DNA of 58,837 nt, filler included, from Catajapyx aquilonaris (lineage: Eukaryota), in assembly GCA_000934665.2 (NCBI GenBank). It is 2 parts of 2 records of this genome, joined end to end, with 100 filler letters (N's around TTAATTAATTAA, not from the genome) between each part and the next. Parts side by side here need not be neighbours in the genome. Positions count along the whole stretch, not along the records: positions 29,480 to 58,837 come from KZ539224.1; 1 more part is not named here. One strand, written 5' to 3'. Positions 5,374 to 53,300 of the stretch are shown here, one piece after another. The translations under genes and the position numbers were made by a program. Positions within the stretch are counted from its first letter, which is position 1; every line of letters starts with the position of its first letter. The notes beneath the pieces were generated by a model. The model did no database searches. It was not told the origin of the DNA and saw only the letters and a program-made list of their open reading frames with translations.

Positions 5374-6043
5374 GTCGTCTGGCACAGGGCACTGCAATCA
5401 CACTCTCTGTTGTTGCAGCAGGATGTGGTCAGTGCTGCATACGTCAGTAGTGCTATATATCCTCTGTGTCAGGGGTGACACCTGGCAGTTGCTGTAGGTC
5501 AGTGGCAGCGAGGCAACAACCCCGGAACCCCCGCAACAGACCGATTAAAAGACCATTTAATGCGGGACAGGTAAGTTATCGCATCAAGGTATCACTACGG
5601 ATGACGTCGCACCAGATACGGTAACCTGCAGATAACAAGGCAGGAGACCAGATAGCGTCGCATTAATTATTAATCAGGATCCGCCTCCAAGTGAAACCTG
5701 GTTTGTAATTTAAAATAGTAAATAATTTCAGGCTCTTGCGCTTCGGAGTTATGTGCGCGCGGAATTTACACGGTCGAATGAAGCGGAGGACCAATCAGAC
5801 GAAGGTGGTGCGGGATTTGTTCCTCACCGGGGAGGAGCTGTTGGAGAAGACAAGACGGATCATGTCCACCAGATAAAAGGACAGTCCAACGTGATTCATC
5901 TGGACAACATACCAAACCCGACCCAGTGACGAACCGAAGATGCAGCATGGGGAGTGACACGGGCATGCCAGGAACCAGCAGGTAGTACCTACTGTGTGCA
6001 ACTGAAAATGTAATCTCATGTTGTGCCCCTTCAGAAGTGCACG

Positions 6044-13401: not shown

Positions 13402-14526
13402 CTAACTCTCTCCCATCTGCTCTTGCACCCTCTCCAGCTGCGCCAACATCTTGGCGTGCTGCTCCTTCTTTTTTGCTTCCTTGGCTGCTTTTTTTTCTTC
13501 TTTCTCCTTCTTTTCCAGCAGTTCCTTGAAACGTAAGTCCTTCACATCCACCTTGTAGCCAAAATGACGCCTCACTTCCTCCATCAGGCGCTCCTTCTTC
13601 TCCTGCACAAGAAAAGAGTGACTGTATTATATTAGGTCAGGTTCTCGCAGATTCCTGTGAAGTTACAGAACTTCGGGAACAGCAGGTTGGTTGTGGGGGG
13701 CTGGGTTGCAGATTTAATAACTGCCAGATATTTGGAATAGTTCCCATGATACGCAACATTCCATATTCGAATACCACGATTCATAAACCTGGAACCTAGG
13801 TGGCTAGTGATATGAATCTCGGCACTGATGCCACATTTAGCAGTCCAACCTTGCCTAAACCAGGATTCATCCAACCGTACCTGTGCCTTGCGAGCTTCCT
13901 CCTCCTTTTTCCTCTGGCGCATGACGAGGTCTTTCTTCCACTGCTCCAGCTTCGCCATGTTCCTTTCCACTTCCACTGCCCTGTAATGACACTGCGGTCT
14001 AAGTCCCCGATCCCTGTTTTTAGTGGATGTGTAGTACAAACCTCCTTTTGCGATACTCTTCCACCTCCCTCCTTTTGTCCTGAGCAGCCATGACCATCTC
14101 CTGCAGTGTGAATGGGTTTTCCACCCTCTCGTACTCCACCTTCTCCATGAGCTCCTCCCTGGTGGGCCAGTGTATCCCCGGGTTGATCCCAGTGGCCTTG
14201 GCCCCGTACCTGGCCAGCATCCTCTGCCTGTACTTGACCGTGGTGTGGAACCAGGCCTTGGGCTCAGGGTGAGGGACCTCCCCGTTCACCAGTCGACGGT
14301 GGTGCGGATGAAGACGAGACACGTCCCTTTGCTGCTCTATGCGGGCCTCCAGGGCAGCCCTCTCCGCCTGGGCTTCCTCATCCGCGTCGGGCATGGCCAG
14401 CTCCATCGGCAGAGCCTCGTCCGGAATGCCCTTGGACGAGGCGGCCCGCGTGGTGGTGACCCATGGCGAGCTCCAGCCCCGGGCAGCCAGCCCCGGCACC
14501 ACGCTCATACGCCTGAAGGCAGCCAT
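13402..14526 (-). CDS. GADD45GIP1: GADD45GIP1/CRIF1 (mitoribosomal mL64), ~261 aa; exons 14526-14042, 13980-13881, 13602-13402
   Basis: Mitochondrial-presequence-like N-terminus; RYG..TGINPGIHWPTREEL; EEVRRHFGYKVDVKDLRFKELLEKKEKEEKK; splice phases consistent. Confidence 0.9.
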
Positions 14527-14932
14527 TTTAGCAGATAGCGGGTAAGGATCGCCGCTATTCCTGACCGCGATTTAGGAGCAGTGTTGCCAATCCCTGTGGG
14601 TTTTGACGGGAGATTTGGGCAGGAAGCGCAGCATCCTCCAGGAGGATAGTCCAGCGTGGTGCGCGTGCGGGTCCAAGGCCCCCAGTATTGGCGTATTGGC
14701 CACCATCCGGACTCCCAGAAGCCAGTGCTGCTGCCCAAGAGGAGGACCAGCTGATGCAGTCTGCCTGATGGACCTTTATTGACAAGGGATGACTGGGTTT
14801 GGAACCGACTCTTGCGGGCATCACTTCCAGTGCAGTCCAGTCGATGAAGAGGGACGAGGCTGCAGCTGATGAGCAGCACGTAGTACACAACAACAATATT
14901 TGTGAAGGCCAGGTGTGAGGTATGCTGATTTG

Positions 14933-25946: not shown

Positions 25947-26563
25947 ATGGCCACAACAACTGGGCATATCCTCATTGGACCCGCGAAGGATGGCTCTTTC
26001 GGCTTCTCCATACAGTGGAAAATCGACAATTTCGGAGGGAAAAATAATAGGAGGATGCATTCAACCAGCATCTGCCTCCTACGTCCGCACTTCCTGACGA
26101 CATGAAAACGATGTATGCGTTGGGAGGTGACCCCGACGTCATTCTGATGGGAAACGATGACGTTGAAGTGGCTTCCCATCGTCGCATACTGTCCCTCAAG
26201 AGCCCTGTCTTTGCAGCCATGTTCGAGCGAGACATGCTGGAGAAGAAGACTGGAAAGGTGACCATGCCCGACATGAGCTCTGAATTGATCAGGGAGATGC
26301 TCCATCATGTGTACACCGGGAAAGAGCCCAGACAACTAGGCCAGATGGCATCGTCTCTTCTGGAGGTGGCAGAAAGGTATATCCTGCAGGACCTGAAGGA
26401 AATGTGCGAGGTGCACTTAGCTCGACAGCTGGACATGAACAACTTTCGTACCACACTGGACCAGGCCACCACTTTCAATTGTTCCTATCTGAAGAGAAGG
26501 TGCATGGAGTGGGACTTGGATCACAATAAGGATGCCGTCGAAACAGACATCGACTCGGACTAG
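25947..26563 (+). CDS. SPOP/TDPOZ-like BTB protein (intact BTB ORF 26102-26563) preceded by an out-of-frame MATH remnant; possibly a pseudogene
   Basis: DVIL...SHRRILSLKSPVFAAMFERDMLEKKTGKVTMPD...MLHHVYTG...LLEVAERY.LQDLKEMCE. The upstream ORF from 25947 has IQWKIDNF (MATH start) and stops at 26105. Confidence 0.75.
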
Positions 26564-29379: not shown

Positions 29380-29479
29380 NNNNNNNNNNNNNNNNNNNNN
29401 NNNNNNNNNNNNNNNNNNNNNNNTTAATTAATTAANNNNNNNNNNNNNNNNNNNNNNNNNNNNNNNNNNNNNNNNNNNN
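29380..29479. other. Artificial contig linker (44 N + TTAATTAATTAA + 44 N)
   Basis: Exactly 100 nt, symmetric; the 12-mer places stop codons in all six frames. Confidence 0.95.
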
Positions 29480-31110
29480 CCGAAGGACGTGTCCCACCAG
29501 TCGGGACACAGACTCGTCCTCCTCCGAATCCTTGTCCAGGCTAATGTTATTTCCCAACACTATTCTCACAATCATCGCCAGCCACACCAGGACACGTTCA
29601 AACCACTCCATGGCTGCTGGCTCACTTACCTATTCGGAGCCACTCAAGCACGCTTTGTGGAGCTTATCATTTTCTGAAAAGCACTCAGCAACAGCCATTC
29701 ACCCTTCAATTACACCACTCACTAGTACATATCTGGAAAGCACTTAGCAATGGCTACTGTCTTGGTAAAGGAGATATGACTTGGAATAATTATAGTTGCC
29801 ACTCGAGTAACGGAGAGAGCTATAATTGTACTGTATAGGTCTATCTTTTCTTCTGTGCTTCGTTTACAAATAAATTATTACCTGCTGTGTAAGATAGTTT
29901 CACAGAGGCCATGAATTATTTAATGCAGTGCACTGTTTACTGCTGGGTTGTCAATATCTGCTGGCTCGCTGACATCCGAATTCTGTGTTTCGTAGTACTG
30001 TGGAGTAGAACCTTATCACTATACTTCTGAGAATCACTCAGCCAAAGCCATTAGCTCTCCGAGTCAGAGACAAGTTTGAATTATAGTTGCCAGCATGTAA
30101 TTGATGGAACAATGGGCCACTCTTGCCTGTAGGCCTACTCCACTTTGGTATAATCAACTACTACACGAGATCCTTTGTAAACATATACTACCAGTCGATG
30201 GAAAGCCATGTATAGCTATACAGAGTGTACGCTACAGGGCGTTGTAATGAATATTTTACTCTATTGACGGAGGTATAAGGTATGCTAATGTCGTTGAGTG
30301 TCTTTGCTCACATATACTTTACCAGCCTACTATTAATGCCAGAGGTTTTTTCTGCTGTTTCACTCCTCCTTGAAGGTACTGCCTGTTTTTTTATTTGGCC
30401 ATTTTCATTATTCAAGTAACCTAATATTGTTTAGCTGCAAATAAATGAATAAAGTCGTTAACTATTGGTGGTAAGGTTGTAGACTGGAGGTTTAAGCATA
30501 TATTAATCTAGGTATAGCACAATTATTCGCTCTACAGTACGCCTTCAGGTGCTTGGGTTGGTCGTGAGGCATATATGCTGCTAATGGAGTGTGAATCGAT
30601 GGCCCTCGCACATTCGCCTAATCACACGTTAGGCTCGGTGGGAAATGTACAGTGCCTGCGAGGCATACGAGACACTGCCGGGAACCCAGCTTAACTTGAA
30701 TATCATCAAAATTGTGTGACACTTATTAGAGAATAGGACTAAGGTATGTGTCACGGGTGTGAGAGGAATGAATGCGGAGTCAATAGGCTCTTTTTATAAC
30801 TCAAGGGAAGATTGTTGCGATTTCCAGAGCTTCAATTTTGTTCCACAGTGAATAATTATTGTGACGGTACCGCTGTTGCCTTTTAAAATACGAACCCCTT
30901 GAGACGCTGCATCGAAAATAATGCAAAAATAGGCTAGTTATAATATTCATCGTTATGTATATTATTTCGCAAATATCGTATAGGTGACAAGCAACGACTT
31001 ATTCGTATAATAGGAATTACAGACCCATCAATTATTTATATAATTCTTAAAATTAAATAACATAATATTTACGGTTTAAGTTCATTTGTGGTGTTTACGG
31101 GGTCCAATAG

Positions 31111-31148
31111 TAGCCGCCATCTTGAAGCGGTGTTGCCAAGTTGTGAGT
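31111..31148 (+). promoter_or_regulatory. Probable promoter/first exon of atlastin-like copy 1
   Basis: YY1-like GCCGCCATCTT, RFX-like GTGTTGCCAAG, then a donor-like GTGAGT. Confidence 0.4.
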
Positions 31149-31817
31149 GACACCTGTTCATATGGATTGAATTATTTTGGTTGGTCCTTTTCACATCATA
31201 ATTTTGAGAGTTTACCTGACCTAATTAAGTGACATAACTGAGATTTGATTAGACACGTAACATCAGTTCAAACACTGACAGATATGACATAAAACGCAAA
31301 TACTTTTTCGAGTAAAATTTATTTTTTTAAAGTTCAGTGCATGTAAAACCAAATCCTTAAAAAATGCTATACACCTGTGTGAAATAAAGCTTTTTGTCTT
31401 ACACCCAACTTTTATCAATGCTGGTTATCAAGATTTGACCTTTAGACACAGGCTTTTTCCTTAATGGGTGCATGATGACACTGGTATCTTAAACCGACCA
31501 CTCATCAGACTTTGAACCTGATTCTGCCAAAAGTGTTGACCCTTTGACCTATTTATAGCCAGGTAGTAGTTAATTATTATCAATCTGTTTTTTTTTTTGC
31601 TAATTTTCAAAGAATGCAGATTGATTACTTTTATGTCCATTGGTCTGTGTGGATTTTACTAAGGACCTTGTCGGTACGTTATCTTTTTATCCTGATTTAT
31701 GAGGTGATTAGGGTGATTCTGAACAGTTCATGGTGAGTCGTGAGCACTCATTTGATGTCAGGTATTTTTTCAAGCAACACTGCCTGATGAAAGGGATAGT
31801 CTAAACTACTCTAAACA

Positions 31818-34800
31818 ATGGAAGTACAGGGGAACAAAGGCCAGCCTCGCACCATGGCCACTATGATGGTCGGAACGGTTCCAAGCAAAGTGAGCAAGCC
31901 TGTCACCATAGTGGAGAAGGTAGAAAAGGGCTTCAAGCTGAACGAAGATGCCCTCAGAGAAGTCCTAACGAAGGATCGCATTAAGGACAAACCTGTTGTC
32001 GTGGTGTCAGTAGCTGGGGCCTTTCGATTGGGGAAGTCCTTCATGCTGGATTTCTTTCTGCGATTCATGAACGCAAAGGTCAGTGTCATTAGTAATCATA
32101 ATTACGCTAGGTAGTCCAAGTTACATTGGATTTTTGGCATGCACATAGATGTTACCTGGCTGGATTGGAGCGGAAAACACTCCCTTGGAAGGATTCTCCT
32201 GGCGAGGCGGAACCAAACCCGAAACAACAGGCCTTGTCGTGTGGAGCGAACTTTTCGAGGCAGAGGGACCAGACGGACACCCTGTTGCCGTCCTGTTGAT
32301 GGACACCCAGGGATTATTTGACAACCGGTCCACTGCCAGCGATTGTGTCAACATATTTGCACTCAGCACCATGATCAGCTCAGTGCAGATATTCAACCTG
32401 TCTGGCAACATACAGGAGGACGACCTGCAACACCTGCAGTACTTCACAGAGTATGGTCGGATGGCACTTGAGCAGAGCGGTGAGACGCCTTTCCAGCGAC
32501 TGCTCTTCCTTGTGAGAAACTACACCTTGACTGATGAGTACGGACTTGAAGGAGGCAGAAAATTGCTCAAAGAAATGCTGGAAGTGAAAGACGATCAAGA
32601 TGGAGAACTTCAGATGTTGAGGGAACGCATACGCGAGAGTTTTTCAGAAGTGGATTGCTTCTTGATGCCCCATCCTGGCAAGAATGTGTCCAAGGCAGGC
32701 TTCGATGGGAGTACGCGGTATTTGGACAAAGATTTCAAAGAGCAGCTGCAGGTGCTGGTGCCACACGTGTTGTCGAAGGAGAATCTGGTCGTTAAGAAGA
32801 TCGGAGGAACTGTAATCAGAGTAGAGGAGCTGATTGGCTACATCAGTTCTTACTTTAATGCTCTGAATTCTGATGCATTACCAGAGCCAAGAACATTGCT
32901 GAGGGTAATATTACTGCTGTTAACTTTTTTTACCTTCTTGTTTTTGAACCGACAGTGTACTACAATAATCATCTCAGTGATATTTGCATATGCAGTATTG
33001 AGCTGTATTTTTCTTTACATGTGCCAGGCCACGGCTGAGGCGACAAACATGGTCGCAGTGGAGAAAGCCAAGGAACATTACGACCAGCAGCTATGCGACA
33101 TGTTTGGCGACAGAGACGTGTTCATATATGTGGACGAGGAAACGCTGAAGAATAAGCACGACATAACGGTAGATTCCAGTGTGGACGTGTTCAAGAAATC
33201 TGGGAAGATGGGTGGAGAAGACTTGTGCAATGCATACGAAGGACGGCTGTTACAGGTGTTTGCTTGCTTTTTACTGATATTTAACATGGTTTTTGCTCAA
33301 GGTTAGCTTTAAAAGTTATTAATTAATACCAATTTTCTAATGATATTTGTTATGGAAGATGTACGTCACTGGCGAAGAAATATAGATTTTCAGTGTAATT
33401 TTTTTAAAGAAAAGAATGTCATCAGATATATTTTGAAATATTTCGCCAAATTAGATCTTACCTGTATGGTGTGCTACCTGGGCAGTGTTCCCACAAAAAT
33501 AACAAAAATTCTTCGTTATTTCGCAATTGACCCATGTGCGAAGAGAGAAGCTGATCCTAATTACCAAAACTTTCCATGGCAGGAATTGAGCAAGAGGAAG
33601 GATTACTACAGCCAACTGAACAGAAACAATTACGAAGTGGCCAAGAAGAGCACTGGCGAAGCTGTAGATGCTGCGATAAGGAAGTACAAGGAGTTACTCG
33701 ATGCACTCTTTCCACTTGAGGAGTCGTTTGTAGCCGAGAAGAAATTACACACCGAGCATAGGAATGCAAATGAGAAGAGTCGACAGATGTACAGAGCGAC
33801 AATGAAATTTGGCAGAGAAGATTTGTGGATGGAGCACGAAAAGAAGCTTCTGACGGTACAGTGTCATTATTAATTTTACTACTGACGGTTCGTAACATTT
33901 CTTGACATAACGGATGATCATATGATCTGTTTTAGATCCTGTATGACACATTACAAGCATACGTCACACTCAACCAGAAGAACACCGAGAAGGCAAAGAG
34001 GTTGTACGTTGAACAATCAAAAGCTGAGTACGACCAGAGGATGGGTGAAATCTTTGCAGACAAATCGCTGTTCGTTGACGACTCGGATCTGCGGAAAATG
34101 CACATTGTCGCTAAGGATTTTTGTTTGAAGCTGTTTGCTGGGAAGGCTGGAAAAGTGGTTGTGGAAGAGAACAGGGACAACATGTGTAACGAGGCTACAA
34201 CACGTCAGGAGGACATGCTGAATATGGCCAGCGAAGGAGCTTCTTCGGTGATGCCCAACGATACGCAGCAGAACTTTAGTGATGCAATATCGTGGTGTAA
34301 AGAAGATTACAACTTGCTGGAAATGGTAACGATTATAATTCATCAGATTATTAGAGAATCCACCTGGGGCATATCGATGTGGTGTTCACAACTCAAGTAA
34401 AACATATGAAACATTTCAGGAGTTGGAGAGAATGTATGATCGGTACCTACTGATCAACAAAGGCGTACATGAAACAGCTCACGAGCAGAATGATGGTATA
34501 TTGCAAGCAGCCCTTGTGAGTTACATGCATACTATGGATGCTGCCTGTGAAGACATACGCACAGAAGTATTTGATGCGGGAGAATTAGAACGACAGCATA
34601 ACATTGCAAAGAAATGCAGCATGGACCTGTTTCGGGAGGCGAATAAAATGGGTGACAAGATGTTCATAGAGAGATACCAAGAAGAATTAATTCAAGTAAG
34701 CTACTCCAAAGTGGACACTGTTGTGGAATGTTACTGATGAGTGTTCCTCCCCAGAAATTAGGCCACATGTTCCACATGTTCCACATGTATGTCGGGAAGA

Positions 34801-35475
34801 ATTATGAACGACGTCAGCAGGCACAGAGGGATAACAATGAGGCCGTAACTGCTGCAAAGAAGAACTACAGCATGCGACTGAGAGAGCTCACTGACAAGCA
34901 CCCAAATAAGTTCATCGAGGAGGCGGAGTTGGAGAAAGTAGAGAGGGCCGCAAGAGTTGAGAGTCTGAATATCTTCAAGAAAACCTATAAGATGGGTGGC
35001 GATAAATCCTCAAGATCATATGAAGCTGGACTCAAAGAGGTAATACCAGGGTTTATTTACTTGCTGAACCTTATCCTTTCTGTCAACTTCCTCTTGCATT
35101 TAGGAATGGGACAACACATATACAAATTGCCTTGCGGACAATGCAAGTAAGCTGTCGATCCGCCCGAGCGGTGTTGCTACTGCTGTAGCTGGAGTGTCAG
35201 GTGCAGTGGCAGGTGCTGGTGTCATAACTGTGGTAGGTGCTGGTGTCGTGAATTTGGCATATTCTGTATTGGCTGCATGTACCACGGGTTTTACTGGTGG
35301 TATAATAGGCCAAAACGTTGGAGCAGCGGGTCTAGCGGCTGCAGGCACTATTGGCACTGGAATGGTCGTCGTGGGTGCTCCTGTGGCTCTTGCAGCCACC
35401 GGTGTTATGGCAGCAACGACTATATCCAAGTTCTTCTTAAAGTGTGAACGCACTCAGAAGAAAGTAAAGAAATAA
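31818..35475 (+). CDS. Atlastin/RNF112-like large GTPase with five tandem helical-bundle repeats (copy 1, ~930-946 aa); exons 31818-32078, 32149-32904, 33028-33255, 33583-33855, 33936-34325, 34420-34695, 34755-35039, 35104-35475
   Basis: VVVVSVAGAFRLGKSFMLDFFLR, GFSWRGG..ETTG, LMDTQG, IQEDDLQHLQYFTEYGR, PFQRLLFLVRN, CFLMPHPG, ATAEATN; all introns phase 0; hydrophobic Gly/Ala tail. The start may instead be 31853 or 31863. Confidence 0.9.
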
Positions 35476-36798
35476 TTATAGCACACCTCAAGTTTGGACT
35501 AATCGCAAAGCCTGTCATGGCAATCGAAGATGAGGGGGTTAATGGCAGCATTGCATGCCGCATGAAATGTGACTATCTAAAAAAGCTGATGGTGAATTAT
35601 TATCCAAGTACTGTACTTTTCATGAACATATTCTTTCAACAATTTTTTAATCTTATAAAATTGCAATAAAAAGACAGATGAATGAAGCTTTCCGACACAA
35701 TGTTTTTAACCATGCGTTTTATGTATCCTACCCCACATTGCTTGATGGAGGATTTTTTATTTCATCATAATATAGATGCAGCCCGACTATTTCCTGACTG
35801 CACATTTTGCTGGAGCAGCGAGGAAGAAGATAATTATGTCATGATACACATACGGTTTCATTTGCACAGGTCTAGGTAGTGACTGATTGGCAGAAAAGTT
35901 GCTTATTTTTAAGAACATAGTTTAAGTGATTACTAAAAATGTGTACCCAAATTGTTTCAATACTTTCATTCTTCAGGTCTTACTGCCCGTTTTTTTTAAA
36001 AAAAAACGGGGAATGTTTTGTTTTGCTCTTATTCTTTTTAATGCCTCGTTGGAGACTTTTGGACCAACAATCTGCTTTATACTGCTTTACACATCGAGAT
36101 TGCTAACAAATAAAATTATTTCGGCCCGTTGCATCCCTTGCGATACATCAGTCTCTCTTTGTAATTAATATTGTGGATTGATTAACTTCCAAATGAGTCA
36201 CGACCAGCAACTCCTGAAATAATAAACTGAACATGCTGACATCTCATGCTGAGCCTAATTCGGACACACTGTTAAAAGATAGCAGGTATGTCCTGAACAG
36301 ATGGGGGCACCATTTCGATCCCACGCCCACGTACAATAGAACACAAATTTGAAGCAAATTTTAATTAATTACAAGCCATTCACATATAAAAAAATTCAGT
36401 ACAGTACAGGTAAGAACAAATCATATAAAATATTACACCTGAGAGAAAATAAAGGTTTTATCTTCAAGTGTTATCAAGATGTGACCTTTAGACATAGGCT
36501 TTGACACTCACATTTTTACCCACCCACTCATCCAACCTGGAACATAATTGAGTCTCCCAAAACTTGTTGACCATTTCACCTACTTACAGCCAGGTAGTAC
36601 TTACGTTAATTCTAATAATCTGTTTTTTTACAAATTTTAATAGTGCAGATTGTTTACTTTTGAAGTCCACTCGTCTGCGGGAAATTCCCTCAGGAACCTT
36701 GGGCAACTATCCAAGCATATCAATCACTATCTTATATATTTTTATCCAGGTTTTGGGGAAGATTTTGGTGATTCTGAGCAGTGACTGTGAGTGGTGAT

Positions 36799-39700
36799 AT
36801 GATGCCAGGTATTTCAGGAAATACTTCTGATGTGGGCCGGCCTGTCACCATAGTGGAGAAGGCAGAAAAGGGCTTCAAGCTGAACGAAGATGCCCTCAGA
36901 GAAGTCCTAACGAAGGATTGCATTAAGGACAAACCTGTTGTCGTGGTGTCAATAGCTGGGGCCTTCCGATTGGGGAAGTCCTTCATGCTAGATTTCTTCC
37001 TTCGATTCATGAACGCAAAGGTCAGTGTCGTTAGTAATAGTGGAGAATGATGACTAATTGTAACTTCGCTTCATTTGCATGCACATAGATGTTACTTAAC
37101 TGGATTGGAGCGGAAGACACTCCCTTGGAAGGATTCTCCTGGCGAGGTGGAACCAAACCCGAAACGACAGGCCTTGTCGTGTGGAGCGAACTTTTCGAGG
37201 CAGAGGGACCAGATGGACACCCTGTTGCCGTCCTGTTGATGGACACCCAGGGATTATTTGACAACCGGTCCACTGCCAGCGATTGTGTCAACATATTTGC
37301 ACTCAGCACCTTGATCAGCTCTGTGCAGATATTCAACCTGTCCGGCAACATACAGGAGGACGACCTGCAACACCTGCAGTACTTCACAGAGTATGGTCGG
37401 ATGGCACTTGAGCAGAGCGGTGAGACGCCTTTCCAGCGACTGCTCTTCCTTGTGAGAAACTACAGCCTGACTGATGAGCACGGACATGAAGGAGGAAGAA
37501 GATTGCTGGAAGAAATGCTGGAGGTGAGAGACGATCAAGTTGGAGAACTTCAGATGTTGAGGGAACACATCCGCAATAGTTTTTCGGATGTGGATTGCTT
37601 CTTGATGCCCCATCCTGGCAAGAATGTGTCCAAGGCAGGCTTCGATGGGAGTACACGGGACTTGGACGGAGATTTCAAGGAGCAGCTACAGGTGCTGGTG
37701 CCACACGGGTTGTCGAAGGAGAACCTGGTCGTTAAGAAGATCGGAGGAACTGTAATCAGAGCAAGGGAGCTGATTGGCTTCATCAGTTCGTACTTCAATG
37801 CTCTGAATTCTGATGCATTACCAGAGCCGAGAACTTTGCTGAAGGTACTTATACTGTCGTTGATTTTTAAACTGATTTATGATGATCTATTTTCTTGGCT
37901 GTTTTTGAATCAGCACTGTCCAGTAACATGTCATGTGATATTTAGCCTACATTTAATATGCAGTAGGAATATTTTTTTTCTACATGTGCCAGGCGACGGC
38001 TGAGGCGACAAACACGGTCGCAGTGGAGAAAGCCAAGGCACATTATGACGAGCAGCTATGCGACATGTTTGGCGAAAGAGATGTGTTCGTGTATGTGGCC
38101 GAGGAAACGCTGAAGCATAAACACGACACAGCGGTAGATTCCAGTGTGGACGTTTTCAAGAAATCTAGGAAGATTCTAACTAGTTCGGACCCTCAGCGTT
38201 TTCAATCTGCACTTTGTGACAAGAAGGTACCACTTGGCATGGATGTTCCCTATAGGCCTTTAGGAGTCACTAGCAAGATACCTGGCGTTTCTCGGGTTAT
38301 GAAATACCTTTCCATAGAAGTAACTCATTGATTTGGGGGGAGATGCTGTGGCCGAGATGGTAATGTCTCGGCTTGCTGGGTGAAAGGTCCCAGGTTCGAT
38401 CCCCGCCTGGGAGTTCCCCTTCACTTGCGTCGGGAGGGTCTCTGACCCTCGCCTTGGAGGTGTCTGGTAACCTAACTTCCTGGGGAACAACACACAATCC
38501 CTTTTCAGACATTGCACATGCACTCATGTTCCCTCCCCAAAACTCCCTGTCCGAAAATATATATTTTTCGATATCTAGACTCAAAAAAGGTCAAGTACAA
38601 TGTGGTAAAAACCTTCCCAGTTAAAAACTACCCCTAATAATCCCCCTGGGACATACGTCGAGGTCTCCGTATTGATTAGTTTCGCGAACATACATTGTGA
38701 AATATATCAGATTTGATCGGCCCCTCAGGTCACGAGTTCTGCGATGTTGCCAGGCCATGAGGCTAAAAACATGAAAATGGCCTAACAATGTGATAAAACC
38801 GCAAGAGAACGGCAATAATTATAGAGATCCACTCAGATAATGTATGAAAAGGTAATGCAATGAAATACTGCCTATAAGGGGCACTGAGTATAGCGGAAAC
38901 CTGCCAATATCGGAATTTTGCTGATGAGAATGTGTGTATCTTATATGGCATAGGACACGTGAGGGATATACGGTGACTTCTAACATGTCCATCACTTATC
39001 GATGCATCAGTGTTCACTAATCCAGTAAATCACGTACATTTCAGGAGTTGGAGAGAATGTATGATCACTATCTACTGATCAACAAAGGCTTCCATGAAAC
39101 AGCTCAGAAGCAGAATGAGGGTGTATTGCAAGCAGCGTTTGCACGTTACGTGGAAATTATGGCTGCTGACTGTGGAGACAAAAGCAGGAAAGTTTTTGAT
39201 GCTGAAGAATTATCACGAGAGCATAACGTTGCAAAGACATGGAGCATGAACCTGTTTAGGGAGGCGAATAAATTGGGTGACGACATGTTCATAGAGAGAT
39301 ACCAAGAAGAATTAATTCTGGTGAGTTATAAAAAGTGGATATTACTGGCACATTACTGATGAATGTTCCTCCCAGAAATTAGACCTCAAGTTCCAGATGT
39401 ATGTTGGGAATAATGATGAAAGACGTCGGCAGGCAGAGAGGGATAATGATGCGGCCATGACTGCTGCAAAGGAGCACTACTGCATGCGCCTGAGACAGAT
39501 CACTGACCTGCACCCAAATGAGTTCATCGACGAGGCGGACTTAATGAGAGTAAATAGGACTGCAAGTGATGCGAGTATGAATATCTTCAGGAATATGGAG
39601 ATGGGCGGGGAAAGATTTTCAAGGCCATATGAGGATCAACTCAGACAGGTAATATAATCCGTCTGTTTTTATGACCACAAATCTGTCAACTTCTCTTGCA

Positions 39701-39975
39701 ATTAGGAATTGGACAACATATTTAGAACATGCCTTGCTGACAATGCAAGGAGGCTGTCGTTCATTCCGAGCGGTAGACATTCGATTGCGGTTGGAGTGTC
39801 AGGTGCAGTGTGGGCAGTTGGTTGGACGCTTCTAAAATTAGCAGCGGGTGTTGCAACTATCGCAACCGCTGGCACTGGAATGGTCATAGTGGGTGCTACT
39901 TCAGTTGTGATACTCGTCTGTATTACGGTAAAAACAATGTATTCTAGGTTCATGTTAAGGCGTAGACGCATTTGA
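36799..39975 (+). CDS. Atlastin-like copy 2, disrupted: repeat-1 exon truncated at ~38173 and repeat-2/3 exons missing (pseudogene or shortened isoform)
   Basis: Exons 36799-37020, 37089-37844, 37993-~38173, 39045-39320, 39376-39648 and 39706-39975 match copies 1 and 3; unrelated DNA occupies ~38174-38995. Confidence 0.82.
38336..38510 (+). mobile_element. tRNA-derived SINE within the insertion in copy 2
   Basis: GGGGGAGATGCTGTGGCCGAGATGGTAA (A box) ... CCAGGTTCGATCCCCG (B box); 3' end approximate. Confidence 0.7.
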
Positions 39976-41040
39976 AGGAGGTAAAACAAAGTAGTTAGTG
40001 AGCGTCACTACTTGGCACATTATTAGTTTGGAGTAATTTGTAAAGCATGTCAGAGAAGTGATGCCAGTATTACACAGCATGACATGGGGGTCGAGATGGT
40101 TAATGTTATAAAAACTAATAAAGCATCAGATATGAAGCAAAAGTCAAGAGATTCATTGTTGATACTGTCGGAAGTTACTACAATTATATAGATGTCATGA
40201 TAATGACATTGTCGTGAGTGGACCATGGCCTGCTTGGTGTTTTTTTCCTGCACATTTCATGGCTGTTGTATCAATACTGATTATTTTGGAGGAGTACAAA
40301 TGCTGATATGATAACTAATATCTATGCAGAAAACAATCCGAAGCTGCGAAAGTACATCATAATAGGGAAAACGGCCAAATAATCTATCAACAATTGTTTA
40401 CGATTGTTACCAAAGTATTTACATCCCAGCCAACTTCAACTATTACGAATAAAATTTATTTTTTAAAAAATTCAGTGCATGTAAAAACAAATCCTAAAAA
40501 TGTTATACACCTGAGATTAAAATAAAACATCTTGTCTTACACTCAACTGTTATCAATGATTATCAAGATTTTACCTTTAGACACAGGCTTTTTCTACTTA
40601 ATGGGACTTAGATTATACTTTTTTAATCTATGATATTTTTAACCACTCATCAGACTTTGAATTCTGCCAAAAGTGTTGACCATTTGATCTATTTATAGCG
40701 AGGTAGTAGTTATATTATTATCAATCTGCTTTTGTTTTTTCAAATTTTAAAGAGTGCGGATTGTTTACGTTTATGTTCATTGGTCTGTGGGAGGATTCAC
40801 AACTAAGGACCTTCATTTGGCAACTAGCCAAGAATACCCGTCGGTACATATCTTTATCTTTTAATCCCAGATTAATTTTGAGGTGATTTGGGTGATTCTT
40901 AACAGTTCTGATCAGTTGTGAGTAGTATATGTTGTCAGGTATTTTTTTTCAAGCAACACTGTCTGGTGAAAGGGATCGTCCAAACAATCGAAGTACAGGG
41001 GAACAAAGGCAACGGAGGCCAGTCTCGCATCATAGCCACT

Positions 41041-44000
41041 ATGGTTGGAACTGTTGCGAGTAAAGTGAGCAAGCCTGTCACCATAGTGGAGAAGGGAGAA
41101 AAGGGCTTCAAGCTGAACGAAGATGCCCTCAGAGAAATCCTAACGAAGGATTGCATTAAGGACAAACCTGTTGTCGTGGTGTCAGTAGCTGGGGCCTTCC
41201 GATTGGGGAAGTCCTTCATGCTGAATTTCTTTCTGCGATACATGAAAGCAAAGGTAAGTGTCGTTAGTATAGTGCAGACGCGGAGTTGTAACTTTTTATT
41301 TGCGTGCACATAGATGTTACCTGGCTGGATTGGAGCGGAAGACACTCCCTTGGAAGGATTCTCCTGGCGAGGCGGAACCATACCTGAAACGACAGGCCTT
41401 GTCGTGTGGAGCGAACTTTTTGAAGCTGAAGGACCAGACGGACACCGTGTAGCCGTCCTGTTGATGGACACCCAGGGAATATTCGACAACCGGTCCACTG
41501 CCAGCGATTGTGTCAACATATTTGCACTCAGCACCTTGATCAGCTCTGTGCAGATATTCAACCTGTCCGGCAACATACAGGAGGACGACCTGCAACACCT
41601 GCAGTACTTCACAGAGTATGGTCGGATGGCACTTGACCAGAGCGGTGAGACGCCTTTCCAGCGACTGCTCTTCCTTGTGAGAAACTACGGCTTGACTGAT
41701 GAGCACGGACTTGAAGGAGGAAAAAAATTGCTGGAAGAAATGCTGGAAGTGAGAGACGATCAAGATGGAGAACTTCAGATATTGAGGGAACACATCCGCC
41801 ACAGTTTCTCGGACGTGGATTGCTTCTTGATGCCTCATCCTGGTGAGAACGTGTCCAAGGCAGGCTTCGATGGGAGTACACGGGACTTAGACAAAGATTT
41901 CAAAGAGCAGCTGCAGGTGCTGGTGCGACACGTGTTGTCGAAGGAGAACCTGCTCGTTAAGAAGATCGGAGGAACTGTAATCAGAGCAAAGGAGCTGATT
42001 GGCTTCATCAGATCGTACTTCAGTGCTCTGAATTCTGATACATTACCAGAGCCGAGAACTTTGTTGAAGGTAATCTGCTGTTGACTTTTTACATCCTTGT
42101 TTTTGAACCGGAATATCACATTCAATCATCATGCCCTAATTGCTTGCTAATTGTAGTATTAACCAATATTTTTTGTTACTTATCAGGCCACGATTGAGGC
42201 AACAAACAAGGTCGCAGTGGATAAAGCCAAGGAACATTATGACGAGCAGCTAGACGAGATGTTTGGTGACAGAGACTTGTTCGTATATGTGGACGAGGAA
42301 ACTCTGAAGAATAAGCACGACACAACGGTAGATTCCAGTGTGGACCTGTTCAATAAATCCAGGATGATGGGTGGAGAAGACAACATGTGGATAGCATACG
42401 AAGGAAGTCTACTGCAGGTGTTTGCTTTGTATTTTATACCCTTACCAGCCTAACATAGTACCTAACATAGTATATTATTTAAAAAAAACTTAATACCAAT
42501 TAGCTGATGATATTTGTTAGGAAAGATGTGCACAAAGTGAGGCTGAAATAAACTGATAAAACTTTCCATGACAGGAATTGAGCAAGAGGAAGGATTACTA
42601 CAGCCAACTGAACAGAAACAATTACGAAGTGGCCAAGAAGAGCACTGGCGATGCTGTCGATGCTGCGATAAGGACATACCAGTGGTTACTTGATCGGGTA
42701 CTTCCATGTGAAGACTCGTTTGTAGCTGACAAGAAATTAGGCAGCAAGCATAGGGATGCAAAGGAAAAGAGTCTAGAGAGGTACAGAACAACACATAAAT
42801 TTGGGAGAAAAGAATTGTGGACGGAGCACGAAAGGAAGCTTACTAAGGTACGGCGTAATTATTACTACGGTACTGCTGTCTTATCATGCGTGATCATTGT
42901 TTTAGACCCTGGACGATACATTTGAAGTAGTGTACCTCTCACGTAACAAGACCAATATTGAGAAGGCAAAGAAGTTGTACATGGAAGAATCAAAAACTAA
43001 ATACGATAAGATGATGAGTGCAATTTCTTCAAACGAGTCGCTCTTCATATATGATTCAGATCTGCTGAAAATGCACAATGAAGCTAAGCGATTTAGTTTG
43101 AACCTGTTCACTAAGGGTATGGCTGGAAAATCAGTTGCGGAAGAGAATAGGGAGACTCTGGACAACATGTGCAATGAGGCTGCAACACAAGAGGAAGGAG
43201 CTTCATCGGCGGCGGCCAACAATATTCAGTGTAACTTGAGTGGTGGAATATCTTGGTGTGAAGAAGAATACAACCTACTTGAAATGGTAATGATCAAAGT
43301 ATTGATATTATATATTTTTCAAAATTTTGTGATTTAAATACTGATCAACTTTGTAGCACTGTCAGAAATGTCTCATTTATGGTACATATCGATTCAGTGT
43401 TTATTGATTGAGTAAAACATGTACATGTCAGGAGTTGGAGAGAATGTATGATCGCTACCTACTGATCAACAAAGGCAAACACGAAAAAGCTCACGAGATG
43501 AATGATGTCATGTTGAGGGCAGCACTTATACGTTACGTGCATGACATGGATGCTCTCTGTGGAGACCTATGCAGAGAAGTATTTGATGCGGAAGACTTTG
43601 AAAGAGAGCATAACGTTGCTGAGAACCGGAGCATGGATGTGTTTCGGGAGGCGTATAAAATAGGTGACAATACGTTCATAGAGAGATACCAGGAAGAATT
43701 AATTCAAGTACGTTGTTTAAAAGTGGACACTGTTACAGCATGTTACACTGATGAGTTTTCCTTCTAGAAATTAAGCCACGAGTACCAGATGTATGTTGGT
43801 AAGAATGATGAAAGACGTCAGCAGGCAGAGAGGGATAACGATGCGGCTATGACTGCTGCAAAGGAGCACTACTGCATGCGCCTGAATGAGTTCACTGACC
43901 AGCACCCAAATGAGTTCATCGAGGAGGCGGACTTAATGAGAGTATATAGGGCTGCAAGTGATGAGAGTATGAATATCTTCAGGAATATGGAGAAGATGGG

Positions 44001-44406
44001 TGGTGATAGATTTTCAAGGCCATATGAAGATAACCTTAAAGAGGTAATATTATCGGTCTGTTTACCTATTTGTATAACCCCTGTCCACTTCTCTTGTAAT
44101 TAGGAATTGGAGAACATATTTATAACATGCCTTGCTGACAATGCAAGGAAGCTGTCGTTCGTCCCGGACGGTTTTTATGCGACTGTAACTGCAGTGTCAG
44201 GTGCTGTGATGGGTGCTGGTTTAATGACTCTGCAACATGCAGCTGCAGCTACTGCGGCTGGTGCAGCAAGTGCAGTGGCTATAGGCACCGCTGGAACTGG
44301 ATTGGTCGCACTGGGTGCTACTGTAACTACTACAGCCACCTGCATTATGGCAAAAACTTTCTTATCTACGATCATCTGTAAGATTAGACGCACTTGGAGT
44401 TGGTAA
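41041..44406 (+). CDS. Atlastin-like copy 3, intact, ~902 aa; exons 41041-41253, 41314-42069, 42187-42417, 42575-42847, 42906-43286, 43432-43707, 43768-44043, 44104-44406
   Basis: Same motifs and exon layout as copy 1; every exon length is a multiple of 3. Confidence 0.9.
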
Positions 44407-44749
44407 AAGATGTTAGAGTTACTTATTGGCACGTTATGAGTCTAGAGTAATTTGCAATTACACTGCATGACTCATGAGTCTAAATGGTAAATGTTATTTT
44501 AAAAAGGTAATAAAACGACAGATATGAAGCAAAAGAAAAGAGATTCATTGTTGATATTGTCGGTCGTTACTATAGATGTTCATGACAATGACATTGTTGT
44601 GAGTGGCTAAATGATTTTACACTAGTCAAATCGCACAAACGTCAGAGGTAAGCATGCACTGTTATGACTTTCTAACAATGTGCAATTCAATGGTCATTGG
44701 ACCGTTCTGCAGCTTGTTGATCATTTACAGATCAGTCAGTGTGGAGAAA

Positions 44750-46243
44750 ATGCCTCGACCAAAGACACCACTTCCCCTTCAGCTCACCTGCCTGAAGGAA
44801 ATAGTCACCACTGTTGTGAGTGCCTGTGAGATACATCCAAATGGACACTTGGATATCCAGAGATACTCCCAGCAGCTTCCGACCATACTGGCCAACCAGT
44901 ACGTCCAAATTCTACTAGCAACCGTCAAGTTGGTTGGACTGTATGACTTGGACGTAACTGGTGTCATCACCAACACACGTTGCAGTCATCTCCAACTAGA
45001 CACCACAAACTATCTGTCGCATCAAATATTGAGCAACCTGGATCAAATGACTGGGTTGACTCATCTTGAAATTAGTGGAGTTGTTGATGACTCTTGGACC
45101 ATGGCCTGCATGGTGTAATGTCCAATCAACTTCGTCACATTCCCAAACTCGAGTCACTTCGTCTCATCGCTGCAGTCAGCGACGACTCCCAACTAATTCA
45201 AAACATTGCGAGTTTCTCTCATCTTCTTCAGGAGTTGTGTTTTGTGTGGGACATGTCCACAGATCAGCCTGTAACTCTGAAGGATTGTCAAAACCTGAAG
45301 AGGGTCAGTGTGATGTATTATGGAGACTCCTCAGACATGGTGGTGTACATCCTGGAGAGCATCCCTCAGCTGGAGCGCTTGTTTGTAGACACAGAAATGG
45401 AGAGTCCAGTTTTAGCCAAATGTCTATGGACGTATGGGTTGAAGTATTTTCCAGGCCATGTGAGTCATGAACTGGGCTTATTGGCTAAACATTTTCCGCA
45501 TTTGGAAGATCTGCATGTGAAGAAGTGTTACAATCCTTCAGCAGCTGGAGGGCTAGTATGCGTGAAATCTCTTCGTATTTCAGAGTCGATCTATCATAAT
45601 GTGTCAGAACTGATCTGCATGTTTACTCACACCCTTGTGAGTCTCACACTGCATGACATTATAGGAGTTCAGGAATCATTTGACAATCTAACATTGCGGA
45701 ACATTGTGGAACCTCACCATTATGAAGTGTACGTGTGTAGACATTGCTCAAATCGGATGCATTTTTCCTCGTTTGAAGTACCTGATCTTGATTAGCAACC
45801 TGATTACACCTATGACAACGAGTAATCGTCCTAACAATTCATTCACGCAACTGACAGATTTGACCATCAAAGACACGAACTCTGACTTCGTCAAAAGTGC
45901 TCACCTCCAGCACATTATGTCCAGTTGCATCAACCTACATGATCTGGTGATAGTATGCAACACACTGGACAACACCTTGATGCACAATATTCTTAGCATC
46001 AACCCAATGACACAGATGGAATATCTTGACATAGAGAGCAACACTATCACCCCAGATGTGATCTTCACAATCCTTGAATATTTTGGTGATCTTCTGGAGC
46101 GCGTCCTGTTCCGTGGCACTCAGATGAGCATGAACCAGGACTACATTGAATCGCTGAAGACCAAGATACGTCCCTACCATATTCTGATGCACATTGACAG
46201 AATTCAGTTCGGCCTAGAAGAGCATTGTGCTGATGAAGACTGA
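44750..46243 (+). pseudogene. Intronless BC-box/LRR (RNI-like; ZYG11/PRAME-style) protein with two frameshifts
   Basis: MPRPKTPLPLQLTCLKEI start; LxxLxL repeats (GLTHLEI, PKLESLRL, PHLEDLHV, PRLKYLIL) spread over three frames; shifts near 45095 and 45700. Confidence 0.7.
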
Positions 46244-50313: not shown

Positions 50314-53300
50314 CTATTCCTCTTCGGGTCCCATGGCCATCATCTTCCTCTTGGCTATCTTGGAGTACTGGATGTCTATGGGGAGGGTGGTGTCATACAA
50401 GGAAGGTGCCTGCAGGATGATCCCACACGTGCCCAAGACACAGGCCAAGGAGAAGATCCAGAGGAACAGACGGTCCAACACCATGGCCACGTACTTCCAG
50501 TCTTCCTCTATCTACATAGTCATAGAAAAGGGTTAGAATTTCGGGCTGATCTTTACTACGCGACGAAGTGACGGGAGTCGGTGTGGAGGCGCACCGGGGG
50601 GGCATGCAGGCAAACTCGAGCGTTACCGAAAAGCGTTACAGTCAGGCCCTGACAGGGGGGGTCCGCCAGGGGCCCCATGGCAGGGCTAAATTCGGATCCG
50701 CATAGGGGGCCATGGAGGCAAACTCGAGCATTACAGAAAAGAGTTACAGTCTACTATAGCCATGTCCACTATACCCGAGTCTACTATATCCGAAGTGGCT
50801 AAATTCGGATCCGTATAGGAGGCATGGAGGCAAACTCGAGCATTACAGAAAAGCGTTACAGTCTACTATAGCCGAGTCTACTATATCCGAGTCTACTATG
50901 TCCGAGTCTACTATATCCGAGTCTACTATCTCCGAGTCTACTATATCCGGGTCTACTAATTATGAAATAAATAAATATTAATGAATAAATAAAAGAAATA
51001 ACTTGACTCCAGCCATTTCGCCACGTATACATATAGGAAAGACCAGCCCCTGCTACATGTTGTACCTCTGCGAACTTGTCCTCGTTCTTCTTGTGCTGCG
51101 CGACGAACCTGATGCCCGTGATGGCCTTGGCGAACTCCGGGTAGAAGGGCCTGTCGCTGGAAGGACTGACCTCACCGGTACCGGCAAAGTCCACGACGTC
51201 GTCCGTACCCGGTAGCGGCAGGAACCCGGCACCGTTCCCACCGGCGGTCGTGGTCTCGACGAAAGGGGATGTGACGTCGACGAAGCCCCGGTGGTCGTAC
51301 CTTGGAGGTGTGATACTGGGTATGTCATAGTCTCTGCCATATTTGCCATACTTTTCATACTCCTGGATATCGAACACGTCCATCTTTCCGTTGCTGCCTC
51401 CGTTGCCGCCGTTGTTGTCCGGAAGACCAAAGTCGATCCCGCAGGCCTGGTGGGTGTTGCTGGTATGGTTCTTGTCCTCGTCCTCGTCCTCGTCCCTCTT
51501 GGGCCTCTCGATGAACAGGTACCTGGGCAGGAACTCGATGAAGACCTTCCGGACCCACGGTGCCATCCGGTGTGTGGCTGGCGAGCGGAAGTTGACGTTG
51601 AGCACCGCGATGGTCACCACCACGGAGAATGTGACCAGGATCATTGTGAACAGCAGGTACTTCCCAAGGAGCGGTACGGTCAGGGACGTCGGAGGGATGA
51701 TCTCGGCCAGGAGCAAGAAGAACACAGTCAGGGACAGGAGGATGGAGATGCAAAGAGACACCTTCTCTCCAGAGTCTGATGGAAGGTAGAAGACAAGGAC
51801 TGACAGAAAGGAGATGCCCACGCAGGGTATGATCAGGTTGACAGTGTAGAACAGTGTCTTCCGCCTCAGAGTGATGTTGAAGATGATGTCCGGGTATGGC
51901 TCCTCGCAGCAGCTGTAGAACTTCTCATTTCGGACAGCAGGCACCTTCATCACGTCCCATTCAACACTCAAGTAGTAATCACGAAGATCGATGCCCACTT
52001 CAATAAAGTTGGATTCGGCCGTTTGACCTATGTGCTGGAGGTCAACCTGAAAAGTAGGACAATTTTTGCTATATTTGCTCCAAAAACTAGCGTCATTTTC
52101 AAAATGTGGCTACCCATCTAATCTGGGAATGATCTGCGTTCACCCCTATTGTTGCGGGTTTTGCCTATAGTGACATGCACACGCCATTTTCATCAATCAA
52201 AAACTGATAGGGAAACAAGCTATTGAGCTCGTTTCAATAACCAGCATTTTGGAGAGGAAAAACATGCCAATATTATTATTCCGATGGTAAACAACCTTTC
52301 GATCAAACTCACAGTGTGATGTGACCCGTGCCAATTTTAATTATCACTATTGCAATAGAGATGTGCAAATAGTTTTGTAACATTTTCAACGGGTTCAGAT
52401 GCTGGTAATATGAATGGATAGGGAATGCTCCCTTAGAAATATTTTGATTTGATTTGTGTCTGTAATTGATTTGAATTGAATTGGTTTGATTGTGAAACAT
52501 GATTGCGATTGGTTTGGATTGATTTGATTTGAATCAAGTAGATTTGAATGGAATTGAATTGGTTTAATTGTGAAACTTGATTTTGATGTGACTTGACTGT
52601 ATGTGATTTATTTTATTCGATTTGATTTTTGACTTAATTAATATCCATATGGTCAGATAATGTACTAACCAAGTATCCGTCGTATGTCCAGGAGCCGAAC
52701 TTCATGAAGCAAGTCTGCTCATCAAATGGAAAGTACTCGACGTCTATCTCACACGAGGACTTGTAGATAGCAGGAGGCTTCCATGACACCTTTCCCGTGT
52801 AGTGAAGATTAGCTTTGGTCATTATGGTCACTTCGTAGTTACCATCCGCACTGAAATGGAAATAAACTTATTAACATTTGTAGAGCATCGCCCAATAATA
52901 ATTGGATTGGGAATGTGACTATGTTTGTCCGCGATTGCTGCGCCATCTATGTGAGACATACTGTACATCCTTTTAAATAATCTGCGTCGCACATCTCAAT
53001 TTAATCCTTTCTTGCTTTTGTCATCAGGACTTAGCGGACATTTTCCCCTCGAGGTTGCACTAGTTGGTGCTATAGGGACTTTGCGAATTCTCCCTTTTCT
53101 CTACTCCACCTCCCTATCCAAAGTAATGAGGAGCAGTGAAATTTCGCCAATTACAATCCGGTGCAAGCGTCAGGCTTTTCGCTGAAACTCGGGGAGCACG
53201 AGCTTGATTTTTTTTTGGGATGCAAAAAAAACTCACGGGGTTTTTGCGCGTGAAATTTTGTGAATGTGGGTTGAAAGTAGCACTCTTCGTAATTGATGTG

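Follow-up and report, generated by a model that had tools for sequence, protein, structure and literature searches.

A tandem array of atlastin-derived GTPase genes with a five-bundle stalk in Catajapyx aquilonaris and its possible role in long-range membrane tethering

Membrane fusion by atlastin requires the C-terminal cytosolic tail of the protein. According to the available text of PMC9804665, canonical atlastin has two close transmembrane segments and a C-terminal tail that includes an amphipathic helix. In Sey1p, as described in the accessible part of PMC4576867, the stalk is made up of four three-helix bundles (3HB) joined by continuous helices and is critical for fusion. The window analysed here is a 58,837 nt stretch of the Catajapyx aquilonaris genome (GenBank assembly GCA_000934665.2), and at positions 31818–44406, on the plus strand, it contains three tandem genes of the atlastin type, referred to as copies 1, 2 and 3. 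On balance, their products are probably non-canonical, membrane-anchored atlastin paralogues in which a five-bundle stalk provides a long-range tether.

The tandem array and its transcripts

Gene models were built from stop-to-stop reading frames, peptide landmarks and splice-site contexts. Copies 1 and 3 are intact and copy 2 is internally deleted. Copy 1 (31818–35475) has 8 exons encoding 946 aa and copy 3 (41041–44406) has 8 exons encoding 895 aa. In both, the introns are all GT..AG and all in phase 0, and the five stalk exons are 76, 91, 130, 92 and 95 codons long in copy 1 and 77, 91, 127, 92 and 85 codons long in copy 3. A tblastn search of the 58.8-kb window with the exons of copy 1 detected no family member beyond the three copies. 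The models and this search confirm the three-gene array of atlastin-derived GTPases with repeated stalk exons that was proposed in a first-pass annotation of the window. Approximately 550 bases 5′ of each copy are also similar among the copies, with 69% mean column identity. The features of the array are as follows.

31818..32078, plus strand: copy 1 exon 1, with the start codon, N-terminus and P-loop GAFRLGKS; Pfam GBP N-domain, E 2.9e-11
32149..32904, plus strand: copy 1 exon 2, with the remaining atlastin G domain, DTQG, the G4 motif as RN and the hinge ALPEPRTLL; Pfam GBP, E 5.3e-59
33028..33255, plus strand: copy 1 exon 3, bundle 1 from helix 1 to halfway through helix 3; matches ATL1 350–418, E 4e-5
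33583..33855, plus strand: copy 1 exon 4, the last part of helix 3 of bundle 1, followed by bundle 2 to the middle of helix 3
33936..34325, plus strand: copy 1 exon 5, bundle 3, whose helices 2 and 3 are separated by an insert of about 45 residues
34420..34695, plus strand: copy 1 exon 6, bundle 4, the exon for which a structure was modelled
34755..35039, plus strand: copy 1 exon 7, bundle 5, with the upstream in-frame acceptor
35104..35475, plus strand: copy 1 exon 8, the remaining half of helix 3 of bundle 5, then about 90 uncharged residues rich in Gly, Ala, Val and Thr, a short basic end and the stop
36799..37020, plus strand: copy 2 exon 1
37089..37844, plus strand: copy 2 exon 2, G domain sharing 92% identity with copy 1, RN
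37993..38175, plus strand: copy 2 exon 3, in which likeness to unit 1 stops after 61 codons
38176..39044, no strand assigned: DNA unrelated to the family, in place of the end of unit 1 and units 2 and 3
39045..39320, plus strand: copy 2 unit 4 exon
39397..39648, plus strand: copy 2 unit 5 exon
39706..39975, plus strand: copy 2 tail exon, with the stop
41041..41253, plus strand: copy 3 exon 1, with ATC where copy 1 has ATG and the next ATG at 41041
41314..42069, plus strand: copy 3 exon 2, G domain, RN
42187..42417, plus strand: copy 3 unit 1 exon
42575..42847, plus strand: copy 3 unit 2 exon
42906..43286, plus strand: copy 3 unit 3 exon, with the insert
43432..43707, plus strand: copy 3 unit 4 exon
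43789..44043, plus strand: copy 3 unit 5 exon
44104..44406, plus strand: copy 3 tail exon, with the stop

Contigs of a public run, X1, contain 29% of the words sampled from copy 1 and cover 15 of the 30 bins. They join 33854 to 33935 (unit 2 to unit 3) and 34695 to 34755 (unit 4 to unit 5) across GT..AG introns with no mismatch, and spliced contigs of this kind imply RNA or a processed copy. The suggestion that the exons could be confirmed from transcripts was therefore borne out exactly for these two junctions of copy 1, but a full-length transcript was not seen. The second joint also confirms that copy 1 takes an alternative acceptor for unit 5, which lies 30 bases 5′ of the one in copies 2 and 3. 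At the usual position the CAG is replaced by CAC (34782–34784), and use of the upstream acceptor adds 10 residues. In the same region of copy 1, at 34755–34790, a 9-base tandem duplication (CACATGTTC, present twice) lies directly before unit 5. A pseudogene reading of copies 1 and 3 was ruled out by the frames that remain open over eight exons, a ratio of non-synonymous to synonymous substitution (dN/dS) of about 0.3 in the G domain, and the spliced contigs.

Two further joints in X1 have ends that fall in different copies. One, 37842 to 42185, runs from the end of the G-domain exon to the start of unit 1 (records at 37694–37842 and at 42185), with 11 differences in 149 bases. The other, 39900 to 44345, is in a record that differs from the window and has 22 letters between the two parts. 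Splicing between copies was rejected as the source of both, because the contigs differ from the window and so point to another paralogue. There is probably at least one further expressed paralogue, about 92% alike, outside the window.

In copy 2 (36799–39975), exon 1 and the G-domain exon are retained, as are units 4 and 5 and the tail, but unit 1 breaks off after 61 codons. Using tblastn, the end of unit 1 and the whole of units 2 and 3 were found to be missing, with 38176–39044 standing in their place. Near 38340–38410 the sequence resembles, by eye, the tRNA-like head of a short interspersed nuclear element (SINE); a search of Rfam over 31000–45000 gave no match. The depth of run X1 reaches 125 over 38115–38555, compared with 0–5 elsewhere, with many loose ends, and the repeat at 38115–38560 probably belongs to a SINE family that is frequent among transcripts. 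A possible phase-0 donor, AAG/GTACCA (the slash marks the splice position), is present at 38224–38230, 17 codons past the break in unit 1. Splicing from it to unit 4 at 39045 would keep the frame, and copy 2 may then encode a three-unit variant rather than being a pseudogene.

G domain, stalk and C-terminus

The G domain, encoded by exons 1 and 2, matched only one Pfam family, the guanylate-binding protein (GBP) N-terminal domain PF02263 (E 2.9e-11 and 5.3e-59 for the two exons). Amongst solved structures the best match was Drosophila atlastin, with the atlastins, including ATL3 and ATL1, ranging from E 1.6e-86 to 1e-76, followed by RNF112 at 2.9e-26 and GBP2 at about 5e-9, with other GBPs worse. 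The value of 1.6e-86 for Drosophila atlastin against about 5e-9 for GBP2 supports the earlier assignment of an atlastin-type G domain. The nearest database proteins were canonical insect atlastins, at 58% identity or less, and no close relative of the window family was found in the database protein collection.

In all three copies the P-loop GAFRLGKS with the catalytic Arg, the switch Thr (PETTG) and DTQG are present, and the Pro hinge ALPEPRTLL aligns with ELPEPKSML of the atlastins. The G4 motif, however, is Arg-Asn (RN, in LFLVRNY) in all three copies and Arg-Asp (RD) in the other 19 of 19 family members that were aligned. The Asp was found in 129 of the 131 other G domains of the family, and the remaining two were not matched by the pattern. 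In Ran and Ypt1 the analogous Asp-to-Asn change has reportedly been used to alter nucleotide specificity. In the window proteins, with Asn where the guanine-reading Asp would be, nucleotide binding is expected to be weaker or altered. In GBP1 the equivalent change, D184N, serves as a GTPase-dead dominant negative (available text of PMC2714978), and the ATL1 RD-motif mutant R217Q, which affects the Arg next to the Asp and is a disease site, shows diminished GTP binding and is dominant negative (available text of PMC5327485).

The 12 repeat exons in the window have a shared pattern with 32% mean column identity. In tblastn comparisons between them some pairs matched at E 1.7e-4 to 3.5e-6 and unit 2 had no match, while the unit 1 exon matched the 3HB of human ATL1 (residues 350–418) at E 4e-5. 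A hidden Markov model (HMM) of the canonical 3HB, 100 positions in length, was built from 88 distinct canonical atlastin segments drawn from 98 of 101 single-bundle proteins of 520–680 aa, with no window sequence included. It produced five matches per intact protein, each spanning most of the model, with scores of 55.8, 26.6, 10.6, 37.2 and 40.6 bits in copy 1 and 41.7, 34.7, 14.7, 27.6 and 46.0 bits in copy 3. The top domain score among 200 shuffles and the reversed stalk was 6.6 bits. In unit 3 the insert of about 45 residues separates helix 2 from helix 3. The copy 1 unit (10.6 bits) is only modestly above this noise, and its copy 3 orthologue scores higher.

The HMM places the stalk junctions midway through helix 3, at the boundary of positions 74 and 75, in five of five cases in copy 1 and four of five in copy 3; at the remaining copy 3 junction the HMM alignment ends at position 74. 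Each stalk exon starts in the middle of helix 3 of one bundle, completes that helix, and goes on through helices 1 and 2 of the following bundle to the first half of its helix 3. Five atlastin-type bundles carried on symmetric phase-0 exons with borders at an equivalent position had been proposed in the first-pass annotation, and the HMM matches and the position of the junctions agree with this. The repeats can be aligned to the atlastin bundle, and the phase-0 junctions quoted there (LLQ/EL, LLT/IL, LEM/EL, LIQ/KL and LKE/EW) were all found, in copy 1. The accompanying statement that canonical atlastin has a single bundle also holds, with one HMM unit in each of P0177, P0208 and P0234.

Each unit of copy 1 has its counterpart in copy 3, with 59–82% identity, and therefore the five-unit stalk predates the gene duplication. 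We infer that the history of the stalk began with the tandem duplication of a genomic segment containing one bundle, helices 1 to 3 in full, and an intron. This would yield a symmetric exon between two copies of a phase-0 intron, and that exon would then have been duplicated again before the whole gene was. The stalk would thus be a clean example of a rod domain formed by duplication of a symmetric phase-0 exon, with the borders inside a helix and not between domains.

Between copies, divergence increases towards the 3′ end of the gene: dN/dS determined by the Nei–Gojobori method was 0.28–0.34 for the G exon, 0.40–0.84 for the stalk exons and 1.15–1.47 for the tail, where the alignment is of low complexity and the value unsafe. 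The G domain is under purifying selection. The synonymous divergence (dS) was 0.05–0.18 at the 5′ end compared with 0.58 in unit 3, and the lower 5′ values may reflect gene conversion.

The shape of the stalk was examined by folding the copy 1 unit 4 exon (34420–34695) with AlphaFold 2 (AF2), using the 12 window repeats as the alignment. The model has a predicted local distance difference test score (pLDDT) of 87.4 and a predicted template modelling score (pTM) of 0.72, and contains helices at residues 2–44, 53–73 and 80–91, the first of which corresponds to the end of bundle 3 helix 3 continuing into bundle 4 helix 1. In a Foldseek search with this model ranks 1–23 were all atlastin chains, with root mean square deviations of 1.3–3.0 Å, mostly 2.0 Å or less, over 72–81 columns. 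When 48,161 chains were aligned to the model, only three reached a Z of 8 or more (ATL1 at 10.2, Sey1p at 8.9 and fly atlastin at 8.4) and the next was at 6.7. A homologue of 942 aa from an unnamed ENA record, P0039, was also modelled (pLDDT 76.4, pTM 0.42, 20-row alignment). The G domain and first bundle of this model match ATL1 (E 3.4e-34), and the helices after the G domain are 28, 22, 54, 22, 46, 22, 56, 22, 49, 22, 54, 22 and 31 residues long, a pattern that can be read as six bundles linked by continuous helices. The models predict that helix 3 of each bundle continues into helix 1 of the next to form a Sey1p-like rod, which, judging from the helix lengths, would perhaps be about 20 nm long if straight.

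The last exon encodes 70–91 uncharged Gly/Ala/Val/Thr-rich residues with a hydropathy of 1.3–2.4. Only 11 and 8 residues, mostly basic, follow the hydrophobic stretch, and there is no CaaX motif. In canonical atlastins (100 of 101 with a hydrophobic stretch) the median length of the stretch is 51 residues, and that of the sequence after it 63 (range 4–97). When the tail exon was compared with Pfam at E values up to 10, only Trp_oprn_chp (0.14) and holin (0.54) were detected. An ISG12/IFI6-like or glycine-zipper domain was considered for the tail and dropped, as no relevant Pfam match was found at this threshold. The only leads from the Atlas for the Gly/Ala-rich tail were unnamed bacterial clusters (0.88) and Gly-zipper (0.76). 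The hydrophobic Gly/Ala-rich C-terminal region is a putative anchor by which the window proteins would be attached to the membrane.

Relatives in other arthropods and the remaining genes in the window

A profile of the window repeats was searched against 1.84 billion proteins. A total of 228 proteins were found at E ≤ 0.001, and among the best 150 many had several matched stretches. A word-index search with the unit 4 exon against longer proteins found 16 candidates, none at E ≤ 0.001. The GBP-type G domain of Pfam was present in 21 of 25 relatives that were scanned. Amongst 131 proteins with a single G domain, 109 had one match to the repeat profile, five had two, 14 had three, and one each had four, seven and eight. 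The canonical-3HB HMM detected several units in the following relatives, as well as three in P0022 and four in P0010.

Amphibalanus amphitrite XP_043245738.1 (P0006; barnacle), three units
Contarinia nasturtii XP_031633295.1 (P0071; gall midge), three units
Bactrocera oleae XP_069962155.1 (P0104; fly), four units
Halotydeus destructor KAI1306718.1 (P0095; mite), four units
P0039 (unnamed ENA protein), four units
Heliothis virescens A0A2A4K8V3 (P0134; moth), five units
Ostrinia XP_063824527.1 (P0092; moth), five units
Darwinula stevensoni CAD7246749.1 (P0028; ostracod), five units
P0017 (unnamed ENA protein), eight units

Planococcus citri and others are also among the source species of the relatives. 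Where names are given they are automatic, such as ‘atlastin-like’, ‘Atlastin-2’ or ‘unnamed protein product’. The C-termini of these proteins vary, with a Gly/Ala-rich region in P0017, P0028 and P0039 and a single tail anchor in P0095, P0104 and P0022. P0006 and P0071, each with three bundles, have no hydrophobic tail and end in the CaaX-like sequences CTIL and CQIL, respectively. CaaX prenylation boxes occur in GBP1, GBP2 and GBP5. When units were compared one by one using blastp, no orthology with units of other species was found, and the best outside matches of units 2–5 were first or canonical bundles.

A tree of 46 G domains, unrooted and with no GBP outgroup, was made by a quick maximum-likelihood method after omitting duplicates (P0151–P0155) and fused or two-gene models (P0001, P0171 and P0034) and reducing the 109 single-bundle rows to 27. 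The window copies grouped together with a support of 100, and the stem of their clade measured 1.12 changes per column. A separate, tight cluster comprised 29 canonical arthropod atlastins (Shimodaira–Hasegawa-like approximate likelihood ratio test, 85), and the window clade was not part of it. The multi-bundle lineages formed a polytomy of long branches, with long-branch warnings.

In the literature on atlastin paralogues and atlastin-like proteins, judged by titles and the beginnings of abstracts, no description of a multi-3HB atlastin was found, and the available text of PMC9804665 mentions duplications of atlastin and Sey1p in general terms only. The design is not peculiar to this genome, as multi-3HB atlastin paralogues are present in several arthropod orders.

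The other genes recognised in the window are listed below.

1794–3219: FG-rich Nsp1/Nup62-like C-terminus
4867–5397, minus strand: short-chain dehydrogenase
14020–14571, minus strand: CR6-interacting (GADD45GIP1-like) protein
26051–26563, plus strand: BTB domain and a hint of an SPOP-type BACK domain, E 4.8e-18 and 1e-4
50856–52109, minus strand: nicotinic-receptor-type channel in one long exon, then a YSRLG-type simple repeat

Directly 3′ of copy 3, at 44615–46243 on the plus strand, there are long open frames with a leucine-rich appearance and no Pfam match at E ≤ 0.001. Runs of N are present at 29380–29479 and 56458–56474, outside the array.

Possible functions and comparison with known systems

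In the reading we favour, G domains on facing membranes would pair as they do in atlastin, and pairing through long stalks would tether the membranes at a greater distance. The window proteins would probably be poor fusogens or non-fusogens, which we propose because the C-terminal cytosolic tail is absent and RN replaces RD. The first-pass annotation had taken the long stalk as a sign that these may not be endoplasmic reticulum (ER) fusogens. That argument fails, as Sey1p fuses membranes with four serial 3HBs (available text of PMC4576867). The RN motif and the absent tail, both of which the annotation had missed, are better arguments against a canonical fusogen than the long stalk.

A number of points weigh against long-range tethering. 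The function is wholly inferred, and by analogy with Sey1p a long stalk would be compatible with fusion. The predicted rod rests on one isolated exon and a distant homologue modelled from a 20-row alignment with a pTM of 0.42. The Foldseek search with the unit 4 model gave no match at E ≤ 0.001 (all at E 0.06 or worse), and helical matches below a Z of about 13 can be generic. The X1 contigs bridge two of the seven copy 1 junctions and none in copy 3, and what kind of run X1 is is not on record. In the literature, no measured effect of an Asp-to-Asn change in an atlastin was found.

An alternative, which we regard as unlikely though it fits several of the observations, is that the proteins are GBP-like effectors of cell-autonomous defence, as the first reading of the locus had suggested. 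The stalk would then reach, coat or tether pathogen-containing membranes, and the genes would turn over by birth and death under host–pathogen conflict. The tandem expansion with one broken copy and at least one more expressed paralogue, about 92% alike, outside the window would be expected in that case, and all multi-bundle paralogues are on long, fast branches. The CTIL and CQIL ends of some relatives recall prenylated GBPs. The dN/dS values of the stalk (0.40–0.84) and tail (1.15–1.47) exceed those of the G domain (0.28–0.34), but no stalk exon is above 1 and the tail alignment is of low complexity. The G domain is far nearer to atlastin than to GBP, and the other window genes (Nup62-like, short-chain dehydrogenase, CR6-interacting, BTB and acetylcholine-receptor) are of a housekeeping kind and do not form an immune cluster.

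Less likely again is that the window proteins regulate canonical atlastin. Here the Asn in G4 would cripple guanine binding, and a natural dominant negative, held on its rod, would pair with canonical atlastin and damp or redirect ER fusion. RN in all three copies, together with the conserved P-loop Arg, switch Thr, DTQG and PEP hinge, is what would be expected of such a protein, and the dominant-negative behaviour of GBP1 D184N and ATL1 R217Q described above offers precedents. However, in small GTPases the change from Asp to Asn is said to move specificity to xanthosine triphosphate (XTP), and the protein is not dead. That the window proteins are simply ER fusogens with a longer stalk, an arthropod counterpart of the Sey1p/RHD3 design, is very unlikely. 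They have the hinge, the catalytic residues and a membrane anchor, and serial bundles do not prevent fusion by Sey1p. Against this, 8–11 residues follow the hydrophobic stretch compared with a canonical median of 63, RN replaces RD, there are several diverging copies, and the clade is on a long stem outside the tight canonical arthropod cluster.

Returning to the tethering proposal, a broader and more tentative possibility is that arthropods have an unrecognised, fast-evolving class of long-stalk atlastins with three to eight bundles and interchangeable anchors (Gly/Ala-rich hairpin, tail anchor or CaaX) that rebuilds the Sey1p design. The window members, lacking the guanine-reading Asp and the fusion tail, could be tether-only or altered-nucleotide forms that serve long-range contacts or defence. 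In both atlastin and Sey1p, the way in which the balance of tethering and fusion depends on stalk length and on the C-terminal tail has yet to be settled. The canonical proteins with one bundle and the arthropod paralogues with three, four, five and eight make up a natural graded series of the same module. The window genes provide a natural RD-to-RN variant without the tail, and such natural proteins could be used in work on stalk length and nucleotide specificity. If they proved to be responsive to infection, they would represent a second route to defence from this GTPase superfamily, independent of the GBPs.

Compared with known systems, the multi-3HB relatives in other arthropods are alike in combining an atlastin-type G domain with serial bundles (3–8 HMM matches). 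Unlike the window proteins, all of them keep RD, and their anchors vary (tail anchor, CaaX-like or none seen). Their G domains are less identical to those of the window than the G domains of canonical atlastins are. With canonical atlastin (human ATL1–3 and Drosophila atl; PDB 3qnu, 3x1d and 5vgr) the window proteins share a G domain with up to 58% identity, the P-loop Arg, DTQG and the PEP hinge, a 3HB of the same sequence family, and a C-terminal membrane anchor. Canonical atlastin has one bundle, RD and about 530–680 aa, whereas the window proteins have five bundles, RN and 895–946 aa. The hydrophobic stretch of about 51 residues with a cytosolic tail in the former corresponds to 70–91 Gly/Ala-rich residues without such a tail in the latter, and the window family, unlike canonical atlastin, comprises several fast-diverging copies.

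RNF112 (PDB 9jju–9jjx), the second-best PDB family, also has an atlastin-like G domain and a helical domain, but at E 2.9e-26 it is well behind atlastin at 1.6e-86, and no RING exon was seen in the window gene models. GBP1, GBP2 and GBP5 belong to the same PF02263 superfamily and, in the available text of PMC4576867, have a helical stalk that opens with two 3HBs. The same source describes the GBPs as having no transmembrane anchor and a stalk folded back on the G domain. Their G-domain match to the window proteins is about 80 orders of magnitude weaker than that of atlastin, and the Pfam GBP_C domain was detected in the window proteins only at E 0.06, on unit 1.

Sey1p/RHD3 (PDB 5ca8) shares with the window proteins membrane anchoring and serial 3HBs in which the last helix of one bundle runs into the first of the next, a feature that is predicted for the window proteins, and chain 5ca8_A aligned to the unit 4 model with a Z of 8.9. 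One bundle of Sey1p also has a long loop between helices 2 and 3 (available text of PMC4576867), as does unit 3 here. The G domain of Sey1p is of the RHD3 type, whereas the window G exons match only PF02263. The likeness of the two stalks would be convergent, because the window stalk arose from the bundle of atlastin itself.

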